From positions 1 to 5,605 of IMG/VR virus record IMGVR_UViG_2711768053_000011: a stretch of DNA of 5,605 nt, one strand, 5' to 3'. The number at the start of each line of letters is the position of its first letter. Positions within the stretch are counted from its first letter, which is position 1. A program made the position numbers and the translations under genes. This document shows, piece after piece, positions 1 through 5,605 of this stretch. Below the pieces are notes generated by a model. It was not told where the DNA came from, ran no database searches, and worked only from the letters and a program-made list of their open reading frames with translations. Source of the DNA: a virus. Taxonomy: Duplodnaviria; Heunggongvirae; Uroviricota; Caudoviricetes.

Positions 1-356
1 GCTTCCGCGCTCTGCTGCGCCTGCGCCACCATTTCCTCAAAGCGTTTCACTACATCCGGCTTTAAATCGCCTTCATCAAGGGCAGTCAGAAAGTCGTTCA
101 GCGTGCCGGGCTTTGAGTCGTCGTAAACAGCAATGTCGCCAACACAGTACTCGTCGCGCCAGTCCTGTTTCAGATATACGCAATATTTTCCGGTCTGCGC
201 CTTAAAACAGTACTCGCCACAGTTTCCTGTCACCACGTCGGCAACTGTGCGCATCACCACTTCTGAGGTGTTTACCCGGGATTTCAGAATTATGTGGCAT
301 CCGGACATGGGGATGCCTGCGCCATCAATCAGCGCACCTGATATCACTACAGACAT
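1..356 (-). CDS. Side tail fibre protein, N-terminal part (lambda Stf / Rac StfR-like 'prophage tail fibre N-terminal' domain); 3' end cut off by the window start
   Basis: Not in the supplied ORF track because it runs off the window. Hand translation from ATG at 354-356 gives MSVVISGALIDGAGIPMSGCHIILKSRVNTSEVVMRTVADVVTGNCGEYCFKAQTGKYCVYLKQDWRDEYCVGDIAVYDDSKPGTLNDFLTALDEGDLKPDVVKRFEEMVAQAQQSAE, open to position 3. It aligns residue for residue with the lambda Stf N-terminus as I recall it (ISG.L.DG.G.P...C.I.LK.R.N.S.VV..TV....G.Y....G.Y.V.L....G.I.VY.DS.PGTLNDFL.A..E.D..P.V..R.E.MV). An in-frame TAA at 375-377 makes this the first start; the upstream Shine-Dalgarno is weak (GAGA). Confidence 0.7.
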   Translation of the reverse strand, partial: MSVVISGALIDGAGIPMSGCHIILKSRVNTSEVVMRTVADVVTGNCGEYCFKAQTGKYCVYLKQDWRDEYCVGDIAVYDDSKPGTLNDFLTALDEGDLKPDVVKRFEEMVAQAQQSAE

Positions 357-379
357 AGTTTTTCTCGCGATAAATTAAA

Positions 380-910
380 TCAGGAAGAGGCTTCCGGAGA
401 GACGGGCCATTCAATGGCGTTATATGAGGTTTTATCAGTGATAATGTTGAAATCCATCGCCTGTAACTCCTTTGCGTAAATACGCCAGGCTTTCAGCTTT
501 TCTTTTTCTTCATCGCTGATGATTCCCAGAAGTAAATCCGTCTTCTTATCGGATATTTCCCGTTCGGCAATCGCAGTAAGACGTGCACGCTCCGACTCTG
601 CCTGCAGCCTGTAGTCAACAGGGACCGGCAGTACTTCACCGTCTTTGTAATACCAGCGCGCTTCTATACAAAAGTCATCCGGTAGTTCATCCACTTCCAC
701 AATGGTAAAACCAACGGGATAAAGACGGGATACATCTTCCGCCATGGAATAAATAACGCCGGTTTCAGGATGCGTGCACAGTTTGTATTTCTTTGTGAAT
801 TTATCCAGTGAGTCGTAAAAATCCTGTCCGTCTTCACTGCGGAAATACTGAACACCTTCACCATAAGGCATGTTTTCCGGGTAATAACGCGTGACATTTC
901 TGAGTTCCAT
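380..910 (-). CDS. Tail fibre assembly chaperone (Tfa; P2 gpG / Mu U / lambda Tfa family)
   Basis: 176 aa from ATG at 908-910 (MELRNVTRYYPENMPYGEGVQYF...). The C-terminus KLKAWRIYAKELQAMDFNIITDKTSYNAIEWPVSPE fits the conserved Tfa C-terminal pattern (W..Y...L...D.......I.WP..P). It sits immediately downstream of the tail fibre gene and has a strong AAGGAG Shine-Dalgarno 6 nt upstream. The longer track ORF starting at 946 would overlap the tail fibre gene and lacks an SD. Confidence 0.85.
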   Translation of the reverse strand: MELRNVTRYYPENMPYGEGVQYFRSEDGQDFYDSLDKFTKKYKLCTHPETGVIYSMAEDVSRLYPVGFTIVEVDELPDDFCIEARWYYKDGEVLPVPVDYRLQAESERARLTAIAEREISDKKTDLLLGIISDEEKEKLKAWRIYAKELQAMDFNIITDKTSYNAIEWPVSPEASS

Positions 911-924: not shown

Positions 925-1962
925 TTAACCTGATACGGATCGCCATGCACCATTAATATAAATCTGAGCCTGTTTGTAATACACGCCACCGATATTATCT
1001 GCAGAGTTACTGCCAGTGTCCTGAACATTAATGCCTGACAAAACACAACCAGAAGGTGCCCGAAACGTCCAGCTGCGCTCATTCCCACCAGGGTTGTAAA
1101 ACACCTCACTGGTGTACTGAAAATTCTGCACACCGCCTGTTCTGGTCTGGTAGCGTTCATCGAAATTGCCATAATCAGTTGGTGTTACCCTCCCTGAAAC
1201 ATTCACTGCCCGGTGACTTTGTAACGCCCCATTCTGAAAACGGAATACGTGCTGACCATTGGCATAAACATCCAGCAGGCCATCACCATTCTGTTTCAGG
1301 CCGGTATCGTTATCCCCGAAAGCAATTGAGTTTCCGCCCAGCGCGTTCTGAACGCCGATACCCAGCGCACCATTGACCTGAGAACCGCCGCCAACAGACA
1401 CTTTATGCGACATGGATATTTCACCCGTCCGCAGATTAATAGTGAACGGTCGAAGTGGACCAATATCGCCATTCTCGCCCTGACCTTCACTGGTAGGGAT
1501 AAGGTGCAGGCACTCTTCCGAACGACGAAAAATCAGACCAAAGGCTTCGTTGAAAATCCTCAGCGCATTAACACCACGGATTTTCAGTTCCCCGGTCATG
1601 GTGTCGCCATCACGCTGAACGGCATTTTTTGCCTTGTCCACCGTGGGTTTCAATCCGAGGTTTTCAACAGCCTCATCCTTATCTTCCACATCCGAAAGGT
1701 TATTTTTTATCAGCAATGCCTCTTCGTTAATTGCACCACCCACCAGTAATAATATGGCTTTATATAGCTGATCGTGTTCTTCTTTATTCAGTTCTATCCC
1801 GGCCTTCTCAATGACACCACAGATTTCCTCCTGAATGGCATCCCACATGGCACTGTTCAGCCAGGTGGCAAGACGTCCTGTGCGAAGATTTCCATCAGTA
1901 AATCCGTTCTTGCCCGGGCCAAACTTATCTTTTACCGCTGTCAGCGTATCAATCCTGTGCAT
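925..1962 (-). CDS. Tail fibre protein (Mu S / P2 gpH-like, with a P2 gpH-type C-terminal receptor-binding region)
   Basis: 345-347 aa. The C-terminal part (NALGGNSIAFGDNDTGLKQNGDGLLDVYANGQHVFRFQNG ... IYINGAWRSVSG) closely matches the P2 gpH C-terminus as I recall it (ALGGSSIVLGDNDTGFKQNGDGILDVYANSQRVFRFQNG ... KYINGTWYNV). The N-terminus (FGPGKNGFTDGNLRTGRLATW...AGIELNKEEHDQLYKAI) resembles Mu/e14-type fibre N-termini. Two in-frame ATGs lie at 1968 and 1962; the one at 1962 has GAGG 6 nt upstream (1969-1972) and is preferred. It overlaps the upstream gene by about 14 nt. Confidence 0.85.
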   Translation of the reverse strand: MHRIDTLTAVKDKFGPGKNGFTDGNLRTGRLATWLNSAMWDAIQEEICGVIEKAGIELNKEEHDQLYKAILLLVGGAINEEALLIKNNLSDVEDKDEAVENLGLKPTVDKAKNAVQRDGDTMTGELKIRGVNALRIFNEAFGLIFRRSEECLHLIPTSEGQGENGDIGPLRPFTINLRTGEISMSHKVSVGGGSQVNGALGIGVQNALGGNSIAFGDNDTGLKQNGDGLLDVYANGQHVFRFQNGALQSHRAVNVSGRVTPTDYGNFDERYQTRTGGVQNFQYTSEVFYNPGGNERSWTFRAPSGCVLSGINVQDTGSNSADNIGGVYYKQAQIYINGAWRSVSG

Positions 1963-2539: not shown

Positions 2540-3621
2540 TATTTACTCCTTACCGGGTCATAAGCCTGCCATGTGATCTCCCCGAGTACCGGAAGCTCTG
2601 TTTCCCCCAGGTCAATATCCGATGAAGGGTCGATGAGTCGATGGGCCACCTCGCCTGCAGATAAACTGATAGCCTCGCTGATCCTGGACAGATACATGCG
2701 CCCTTCCGGCACACCATCCCGGAACATCAGCGCATTCAGTTCTGATTTTATTGCCGCCCTGATCTGCGGTGTGTCTTTCGATAACGCAATCGTCATCGGA
2801 ATGACTTTTTCTGTGGCACCGAATACATACAATCCGCTTCCGGCAACAGGTGCCAGAGGAAGGATGTGGTCCCTGACTGCGTTAATCACGCTTTCATCCG
2901 GGGCCGGGTGTTCCGGATCGTTTGTCGCCACCATCACGCCAACCGTTCCAATCCCTTTCCAGTGTCTGAAAGTCCATGCACGGTTAATACCCTGAACTTC
3001 TTTCGCCCAGATAACATAATCAGGGTCTGCGCCCCCCTGTGGAATGTAGTAATAACGTTCCATAACGCGGGCACGCCATATTTCCAGATTTTCAATATCT
3101 TCACCGTCTGTAATGGTGTCTGCGTACCCTGTGGACGGCAGACCACTGACGGGTGTTCCCAGCTGCATGGCAATACCATCATCCGTATTCCCCGCCGATC
3201 CCGGTTCGTCTGCCACAACAGGCACCCGGAGAAGACCATCGGCTGCGGTCACCGTCGCCGTCGTGGTGAAGGTCACCTGATCATCACGCTGGATCTGCGT
3301 TCCCGCTGGCAATACCGGCGTCCCCTCTACGCCATCCCAGCGCACAAATCCCCGGGCTGCCACCGCATCTTTTCGCGGGCAGCGTTTGATTCTGGCGTGC
3401 CGGTACAGCCAGTCTTCATCACACATGTCCGGCAACAGATTTCTGGCAAGATAATCGATATACCCGTACAACGTGTGTACGGCTGCAGCCTGTACACGGG
3501 CATACACTTCCGCATCCATACGACGAAGCAGCGTATCCTGCTCAAAGCGGGTTAATAAATCGCTCCGGATCATAGAAATAAGTTGCGGGAGGCCGGGGCG
3601 ATAAAACTGACTGTCAGCCAT
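2539..3621 (-). CDS. Baseplate J-like protein (Mu gp47 / P2 gpJ family)
   Basis: 360 aa, of the expected size and position between the GP46-like and DUF2313 genes. GGAG lies 8 nt upstream of the ATG (3630-3633). The start overlaps the upstream stop by 8 nt (ATGGCTGA). Confidence 0.8.
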   Translation of the reverse strand: MADSQFYRPGLPQLISMIRSDLLTRFEQDTLLRRMDAEVYARVQAAAVHTLYGYIDYLARNLLPDMCDEDWLYRHARIKRCPRKDAVAARGFVRWDGVEGTPVLPAGTQIQRDDQVTFTTTATVTAADGLLRVPVVADEPGSAGNTDDGIAMQLGTPVSGLPSTGYADTITDGEDIENLEIWRARVMERYYYIPQGGADPDYVIWAKEVQGINRAWTFRHWKGIGTVGVMVATNDPEHPAPDESVINAVRDHILPLAPVAGSGLYVFGATEKVIPMTIALSKDTPQIRAAIKSELNALMFRDGVPEGRMYLSRISEAISLSAGEVAHRLIDPSSDIDLGETELPVLGEITWQAYDPVRSK

Positions 3622-4032: not shown

Positions 4033-4566
4033 TCAGCCCATCGGTTGATCTGGCGTGTCAGTGATCCCACCACCATCACCATTTTCGGTGTGTTTGTGGG
4101 CATTGTAGGTCTGCCGCATTTGCTGCATGCTGAGTCCGCCACTGTCGCAATTGTCAGTAATATCAGCGGTGGATTCGACAGGCATTTCAAAGCGCGCTTT
4201 AGGCGCGTTTTGAAAAATAATGGGCTTCCCGCCCCCGTTCACCACAATGCCGGAACGAGTCAGGACAACGGATTGCCCCTGATCGTCATAAAGCGCCACT
4301 TCCCCACGTTTCAGTCCTTTCAACCGGTAACGTCTGTCAGCCACGACCACAACCACACCATGCGAACGATCGCCCGCCGGGAATAAAGCAACGCCCTCAG
4401 CACCGTTCTGTGCGGCAGATGTAAAACCATAAGGTTCAAGGTGCTCAACGTGTTGTTTCTGATCTCCGGCTATCATTTTCAACCCTACAGACTGACACTT
4501 TCTGGCGGAATCCACCGCCGTGATGACAGCCCGGGAAATCAGATTGCGAAGAGAAAACCCGTTCAT
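4033..4566 (-). CDS. Baseplate assembly protein V / central spike (Mu gp45 / P2 gpV family)
   Basis: 177 aa with N-terminal RAVITAVD, a GVALFPAGDRSHGVVV OB-fold-like core and a C-terminal H-K-H ... GDGGG apex motif typical of gpV-type spikes. A strong GAGGAGG Shine-Dalgarno lies 7 nt upstream, and the ATG overlaps the hub stop (TGATG). Confidence 0.85.
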   Translation of the reverse strand: MNGFSLRNLISRAVITAVDSARKCQSVGLKMIAGDQKQHVEHLEPYGFTSAAQNGAEGVALFPAGDRSHGVVVVVADRRYRLKGLKRGEVALYDDQGQSVVLTRSGIVVNGGGKPIIFQNAPKARFEMPVESTADITDNCDSGGLSMQQMRQTYNAHKHTENGDGGGITDTPDQPMG

Positions 4567-5447
4567 CAGAAATCCTCCTCAACATTTTTTTTCTTCCTGG
4601 CGGTAACAGGCTCGGGGAGATAAGCATCTGCCGGGCCAACCCGTAATTCAGTCGTCGTGCCCCGGTCGTCCTGGTTATAGGTGACTTCTGCGATCACCAG
4701 TTCATCATTATCAAAATTATTCAGCGGGTCGAAAACGATGACAGATAACCCCGGACGCCATAACGCGCCACTGCCCTGCCGCCAGCCCTGAACTGTATAT
4801 GTTGTCTCACGGGTAAGTGCAGCCCGTTGGCGCGCTTCAAATTCACAACGGGCCTTACAGGTTGCTGTCGTTGCTGTGCCTGACTGCTGAATCAACAAAG
4901 GGCGATAACGGGTCACACCACTGTCCTGAATAGTCTGTCGTATTGCGGCAATGGTGGCCTCACCAAAATCATCGTCGTTGCCCGGTCGCTGCCCACTGAC
5001 CTGATATTCAGAAAACCGCTCTCTGATGCTTCTTTCCGTGTCACAGGAAAGAATATTCTCTCCCAGAACCAGCGCCGTCGCCGCTTTACCTGTTCCGGGT
5101 TTTCCCAGAACCAGTCGCCCGCATTCATCGTCATAAGCCAGCGTCTGAACCTGCCCCAGTAACCGGTTAAGACAATCGGCAACGGTTTCGCCGTGTTCCG
5201 GCTGGGCATCAATCACCGCTGTCTGCGGCACGCCAGCATCAACAACGGTGATGCCAAATGGCGCAGCCAGTTCACTGACTATTCTGAGCAGGTTTTTTCC
5301 GCTCTGCTGGAGTGGCAAAGCAGAGCAGTCAACCAGATCGGCTGTTTTGCTTCGCCCGACAATCCCCATGCTGACGCTGCTGGCGTCATAACGAAGCGGT
5401 AACGCCTCCACATATCCGGTGAGCACGGGCTCATCCCCGATAAGCAC
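4566..5447 (-). CDS. Baseplate hub-like protein (Mu gp44 / P2 gpD-like position); 5' boundary uncertain, frame open up to 5570
   Basis: 293 aa if started at GTG 5445-5447 (the track start). Its position directly upstream of V matches Mu gp44. The same frame stays open 41 codons further upstream (PLSVLVRVINRIARDFNVAITTRWPGSRDYQPRIKNGELVEV) with no ATG, GTG or TTG, up to an in-frame TGA at 5571-5573. The family assignment rests on gene order and loose similarity only. Confidence 0.55.
   Translation of the reverse strand: MLIGDEPVLTGYVEALPLRYDASSVSMGIVGRSKTADLVDCSALPLQQSGKNLLRIVSELAAPFGITVVDAGVPQTAVIDAQPEHGETVADCLNRLLGQVQTLAYDDECGRLVLGKPGTGKAATALVLGENILSCDTERSIRERFSEYQVSGQRPGNDDDFGEATIAAIRQTIQDSGVTRYRPLLIQQSGTATTATCKARCEFEARQRAALTRETTYTVQGWRQGSGALWRPGLSVIVFDPLNNFDNDELVIAEVTYNQDDRGTTTELRVGPADAYLPEPVTARKKKNVEEDF
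4574..4580 (-). promoter_or_regulatory. Shine-Dalgarno (GAGGAGG) for the V gene, embedded in the 3' end of the hub gene
   Basis: Minus-strand sequence GTTGAGGAGGATTTCTGATG read directly; spacing to the ATG is 7 nt. Confidence 0.7.
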
Positions 5448-5605
5448 TTCAACCAGCTCACCATTTTTTATCCGGGGTTGATAATCCCGGCTTCCGGGCC
5501 AGCGGGTGGTAATGGCGACATTAAAATCCCGGGCAATACGGTTAATGACCCGAACTAAAACGGACAGAGGTCACGCCGACCCATTAGCTAACGACAACCG
5601 CAACA

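Follow-up and report, generated by a model that had tools for sequence, protein, structure and literature searches.

An apparently leaky in-frame TGA at the start of a phiP27-like baseplate hub gene is most likely a by-product of a scrambled contig end

The TGA that stands in frame upstream of a baseplate hub gene in this stretch of viral DNA, in a sequence context prone to readthrough, most likely results from a contig end that is scrambled and shifted in frame, and is neither a recoding signal nor a gene boundary. The window, that is, the whole stretch of DNA analysed here, was identified by exact-product look-up as the reverse complement of the entire 5,605-bp contig CXXT01000096.1 of draft assembly GCA_001268445.1, and the edge of the window is therefore the physical end of a contig. 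The anomaly that contains the TGA sits at this physical terminus and is private to this contig. Judging from comparison with related hub genes, the scrambled tip is probably a contig-end artefact of assembly or sequencing, a reading to which I assign a probability of roughly three in four.

All the genes of the window lie on the minus strand and belong to a contractile-tail module of the Mu type, of which they form the distal part: the hub (gp44-like), gp45, gp46, gp47, gp48/YmfQ, a tail fibre, a protein for fibre assembly and the first part of a second fibre gene. The source assembly is an Escherichia/Shigella-type draft and the contig is the distal tail module of a phiP27-like prophage; the same module is found in about 50 complete E. 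coli genomes and in the Stx2e phage phiP27, with 97–98% DNA identity. The tail genes downstream of the hub (gp45–gp48, tail fibre and assembly protein) are all intact and full length, which argues against a generally decaying prophage.

Several features of the module are worth recording in their own right. Start and stop codons overlap as ATGA at the hub/gp45 (4566) and gp47/gp48 (2539) junctions, gp46 and gp47 overlap by 8 nt (3614..3621), and in the relatives the hub ATG and the stop of the preceding gp43-like gene overlap in the same way as hub and gp45; such overlaps would fit translational coupling of the genes in the baseplate operon. The 345-aa tail-fibre product (annotated 'phage tail protein', 925..1962, minus strand) is known from this contig only in a collection of 15 billion proteins, and its central part (especially 1166..1585) is strongly diverged from relatives that are otherwise 97–98% identical, a divergence typical of host-range mosaicism. 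At the opposite end of the contig, positions 1..463 are identical at 463 of 463 nt to an E. coli SC418 gene for a 'prophage tail fiber N-terminal domain' protein. The contig breaks within this tail-fibre gene, which matches several places in many E. coli genomes, and the break was probably caused by a repeat; no repeat is evident at the hub end, unlike the opposite end.

The gene interrupted at the hub end is already known: it is a baseplate hub of the phiP27/Mu gp44 type. Residues 26–351 encoded by the window do not differ at any of 326 positions from WP_001066645.1 of E. coli A8, and downstream of the tip the hub DNA is about 1% different from that of the relatives, almost exclusively at third codon positions. 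Full matches to PF22255, PF22630 and PF21929 (domains 2–4) are present in the window ORF, and the relative with identical residues 26–351 has all four hub domains, these three and PF21683, in complete form. The window hub lies before gp45, gp46, gp47 and gp48, and the gp43-like (N, DNA circularization) gene that precedes the hub in the relatives falls beyond the contig end here. In the relatives the hub is an intact 351-aa CDS spanning the TGA site, and its ATG, which alignment places 16–17 nt outside the contig, forms an ATGA overlap with the gp43-like stop. Eight members read of the 652-protein hub cluster begin with MNNTV or MNDTV (MNNTV/MNDTVLLRVSGREWGGWTSVRISAGIN) and have no stop at this site. 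Five close relatives are mutually identical over nt 1–100 of the hub CDS, and none of the 17 substitutions of the window occurs in any of them; the relative A36 does have the window's ordinary downstream polymorphisms. The deposited hub gene is thus a 5'-damaged, truncated copy: the window holds no intact frame running from the conserved hub N-terminus (MNNTV…GW…), the first 16–17 nt being absent and every frame containing a stop.

The sequence-only reading of the window was accurate as to the immediate surroundings of the TGA. On the minus strand C follows it at position 5570; the first ATG, GTG or TTG encountered downstream is indeed the GTG with which the gene call begins (ORF 4566..5447, 293 aa), preceded by GGTGA (5462..5458) 10 nt upstream; 41 sense codons separate the TGA from this GTG; and upstream of the TGA the frame is open to the window edge (LRLSLANGSA). 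This upstream stretch comprises 10 codons, and the sole ATG, GTG or TTG start in it is a TTG at the very edge. It carries no weight, because an open stretch of 10 codons arises by chance about 60% of the time ((61/64)^10, my estimate). The peptide encoded by the 41 codons, which had been taken for genuine hub sequence, is genuine over 33 of them (5546..5448, hub residues 26–58, identical to the relatives), whereas the first eight (PLSVLVRV, 5570..5547) are an out-of-frame reading of the scrambled stretch. Over the last 60 nt (within 5605..5546) a stop occurs in each of the three frames. The TGA is therefore not a lone interruption, and no reading of the tip restores the hub.

The nature of the tip becomes apparent when it is aligned with the relatives, whose sequence at this locus is of the phiP27/A36 type (…CGCGAATGGGGCGGCTGGACATCC…GCGGGCATT…). 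The tip is collinear with the hub gene and identical to it at 40 of 57 nt, from which it is separated by 17 substitutions and a 1-nt insertion (Table 1). Differences thus affect 18 of 58 columns, versus 1.1% over the other 3,578 nt of the baseplate genes (P ~3e-21). Read in the homologous frame the window gives VAVVVS*WVGVTSVRFSSG where the relatives have LRVSGREWGGWTSVRISAG; the conserved Trp17 becomes Val, and the conserved Gly-Trp pair (G16-W17) is lost in all three frames. Between about 5583 and 5549 homology to the hub (W.G.TSVR.S.G) is found in another frame than that of the TGA, while upstream of about 5590 the frame is ambiguous, ungapped and one-base-shifted alignments scoring alike. 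The frame homologous to the hub differs from the frame that continues the ORF because of the 1-nt insertion, and it is only because of this inserted base that the TGA is in frame with the downstream hub.

In the homologous frame the TGA takes in the last two bases of the Trp17 codon and the first base of the Thr18 codon. The stop is not conserved, since the relatives, with which a comparison at this position had been proposed, have sense codons here; the TGA is not a simple TGG to TGA change. A nonsense pseudogene created by one such base change was rejected, the TGA being out of the homologous frame and surrounded by 17 substitutions and an indel, and hub-homologous coding does not carry on in one frame across it. 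An alternative genetic code in which UGA specifies Trp was likewise ruled out: five of the seven complete genes of the contig end in TGA, and the relatives have no TGA at this position.

Table 1. Features at the hub end of the contig (window coordinates)
Feature	Position	Strand	Remarks
gp45-like baseplate protein V gene	4033..4566	-	ATG overlaps hub stop (ATGA); first intact gene downstream
Intact part of hub (Mu gp44 / GpP type)	4566..5546	-	Residues 26-351 and stop
GTG start of the gene caller	5445..5447	-	Internal Val59 codon in relatives; 293-aa product on record for this contig only
Scrambled contig tip	5548..5605	-	Collinear with nt 17/18-74 (codons 6-25) of the relatives' hub CDS
Inserted T	5548	-	GGGTCATT versus GGG-CATT in all relatives; shifts frame between tip and intact hub
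Flagged TGA	5571..5573	-	From TGG ACA to GTG ACC (hub Trp17-Thr18 codons)
TAA	5584..5586	-	GAA (Glu13) to TAA when read collinearly with the hub of the relatives

The substitutions in the tip bear no trace of selection. They fall on codon positions 1, 2 and 3 in the proportions 8/5/4, and affect 2 codons synonymously and 10–11 non-synonymously. The hub gene of Salmonella phage ST64B (Sb18), a true diverged orthologue, shows as a control the pattern that real divergence leaves in the same 57 nt: it also has 17 differences, but these are distributed 2/1/14 over the codon positions, 12 being synonymous and 2 non-synonymous, and frame and peptide are kept. The contrast between the two in synonymous versus non-synonymous changes is significant (Fisher p=0.001). 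Transitions and transversions stand at 3:14 in the tip, which is enriched in T, against 35:6 in the rest, a significant difference from the background of close relatives. This excess of transversions was downgraded as a signature of artefact because ST64B, a genuine homologue, is likewise transversion-rich in these 57 nt, and the argument rests on the synonymous/non-synonymous and codon-position tests instead. Of the 17 wrong bases, eight match the true base before them and four the one after; this is only weakly above chance and is not used as an argument.

The tip was not recovered anywhere else. It has no match in 5,426 complete E. coli genomes or in phage records, and the terminal 60 nt alone, compared by blastn with 28 Gb of E. 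coli genomes, gave no match at E<=10. An exact 50-mer of the tip is absent from GTDB species genomes and IMG/VR viral contigs, and an exact 24-mer is absent from JGI metagenome contigs and genome contigs, so that the exact searches yielded neither an upstream continuation nor a second carrier. An IS end, or a known allele or paralogue, as the source of the tip is excluded by absence from the collections searched. Within the contig no self-similarity of the tip, of the kind left by an inverted duplication or hairpin artefact, was found, and mutagenesis of the DGR type was ruled out because the changes are not adenine-specific.

A corrupted tip is the best explanation of these observations because a 30%-diverged, selection-free patch abruptly adjoins a perfectly conserved gene at the end of a short draft contig. 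The contig would then be accurate up to position 5547, and its last 57 bases would represent a corrupted copy of hub codons 6–25, most likely a low-quality or chimeric tip left by short-read assembly. Through the 1-nt insertion the frame that continues the hub would read the corrupted stretch out of register and meet the TGA fortuitously; the gene caller would then have fallen back on the first available start, the internal GTG, to yield a truncated 293-aa 'gene'. The identity of the contig, the homology, the frame relations and the unique, non-coding-like character of the changes are all demonstrated; that the corruption arose during sequencing or assembly, outside the cell, I infer. Chimeric contig ends have been documented for Velvet contigs assembled from untrimmed Illumina reads (PMC2768983). 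Against an artefact it may be said that this contig is not noisy at its tips in general, the opposite end being identical to its match throughout, and that real pseudogenes of the hub do exist, as in E. coli UMNF18.

A rival possibility is that the scramble is real and that a local cluster of mutations destroyed the 5' end of the hub, leaving a true pseudogene in a tail-defective prophage; error-prone repair, or conversion over a short tract with a degenerate paralogue as donor, are examples of how this could have come about. The sequence is, after all, present in the deposited assembly, and hub pseudogenes occur in relatives (the 'frameshifted' gene of UMNF18 and the Shigella variants described below). 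The record of the contig moreover carries the field 'samples_with_this_contig: 2', which might mean that the contig was reproduced independently; if the two samples were independently sequenced isolates the lesion would have to be real, but I take them to be duplicate copies of one deposit. A real lesion is nonetheless unlikely. Divergence of 30% within 57 nt, next to 981 nt that encode a 100% identical protein, is unlike the decay of a pseudogene, the scramble lies precisely where the contig terminates, none of the collections searched contains a donor sequence, and all the other genes of the module are intact. Less probable again is its most specific form, a dense local burst of 17 substitutions and an indel confined to the first 25 hub codons of an otherwise pristine phiP27-like prophage. 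Were such a burst true, it could be due to an error-prone synthesis patch or to a short conversion templated by a degenerate hub remnant that has escaped sampling, and it would amount to a specific knock-out of tail assembly. Quite improbable is a chimeric contig whose last ~57 nt stem from a second, degenerate hub remnant elsewhere in the genome, joined at a shared k-mer. This would account for a tip that is clearly homologous to the hub and collinear with it yet looks non-functional, some E. coli genomes do carry two copies of the tail module, and chimeric contig ends have precedent; the searches of 28 Gb of E. coli genomes and of the genome, viral and metagenome collections, however, turned up no such remnant.

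The two biological readings of the TGA have next to nothing in their favour. Programmed or leaky readthrough, which would give an N-terminally extended hub protein, was suggested by a frame open on both sides of the stop and by the C that follows it, a context that Poole, Brown and Tate are said to have described in 1995 as one of weak termination in E. coli. Readthrough is refuted because its product would contain the scrambled segment without the G-W motif and not the hub N-terminus; the homologues read have no stop here, the homology upstream of the insertion lies in a different frame with its own TAA, and the short open stretch before the TGA offers no start but the TTG at the edge. Likewise refuted is the proposal that an upstream gene ends at the TGA and that the hub truly starts at the GTG, as the automatic gene call and the GGTGA would have it. 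The gp43-like stop of the relatives falls outside the contig, in an overlap with the hub ATG; the GTG is an internal codon, and the residues encoded upstream of it, 26–58, are identical to hub sequence. The ORF that starts at the GTG moreover matches PF21683 (domain 1, 85 positions) only over profile positions 54–85, with 19 bits against a cut-off of 27, and loses positions 1–53. Addition of the 41 upstream codons extends the match to positions 21–85 and raises it to 49 bits, and in an intact relative the domain occupies residues 5–91. Alignment to Mu gp44 (PDB 1WRU), proposed earlier to test whether homology spans the TGA, points the same way: residues 1–344 of the E. coli A8 hub align with residues 1–349 of the Mu protein (E=1.3e-46), so that homology begins at residue 1 and spans the TGA site, where the relatives have no stop. 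The call of a 293-aa gene, missing most of the hub N-terminal domain, is an artefact of annotation.

The remaining option of the sequence-only reading, a hub gene that extends upstream and is interrupted by a nonsense mutation or a sequencing error in a decaying prophage, proved right in essentials. The hub does extend upstream and is interrupted, and the 'sequencing error' half of the proposal is favoured; in place of a single nonsense change there is a 57-nt scramble, and the intact rest of the module speaks against general decay of the prophage.

Other hub alleles illustrate how this gene is altered elsewhere. The hub of E. coli UMNF18 (NZ_AGTD01000001.1, 1139124..1140179) is annotated as a frameshifted pseudogene and its first 147 nt are those of intact alleles; real inactivation of the hub does occur, elsewhere in the gene. 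Alleles of Shigella sonnei and of some E. coli have one to three extra Leu-Val units (ALVLVLGENIL, ALVLVLVLGENIL, ALVLVLVLVLGENIL) together with a C-terminus that is shifted in frame and reads …ARKKKMLRRISDERVFSS instead of …ARKKKNVEEDF; I ascribe this shift to the run of A residues ahead of the hub stop. Such alleles suggest that some tracts are prone to slippage and that the Shigella hub copy is decaying. The window has the normal Leu-Val form (motif ATALVLGENIL, at an estimated ~5010..5060, minus strand).

The value of the case is mainly cautionary, in that a stop codon at a window edge, in a context taken for leaky, resembled recoding or prophage decay. It has no bearing on the biology of readthrough, and if the scramble were real it would add only one more prophage with a dead hub gene.

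With the chimeric or low-quality contig ends of short-read assemblies the tip shares its position at the extreme terminus, its privacy to one contig and its lack of a selection signature; it differs from generally noisy contig ends in that the opposite end of the same contig is clean. The hub itself is the same gene as that of phiP27 (P27p49 / L49, NP_543101.1) and the E. coli alleles WP_001066645.1 and WP_001066647.1, and the window shares the phiP27/E. coli module order of gp43-like DNA circularization protein, hub, gp45, gp46, gp47, gp48 (YmfQ), tail fibre and assembly protein. Compared with the phiP27-type hub the window copy is without the first 16–17 nt, where the contig ends, and has codons 6–25 scrambled. 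Mu gp44 (gene P; PDB 1WRU / 9KI1) and the 43-kDa tail protein of Shewanella MuSo2 (PDB 3CDD) belong to the same family and have the same four-domain architecture, though as distant homologues they are identical to the hub at only part of the aligned positions; a conserved N-terminal G-W-T motif is common to Mu gp44 and the intact hub relative. Apart from its damaged 5' end, nothing distinguishes the window hub functionally from the Mu gp44 and MuSo2 proteins.
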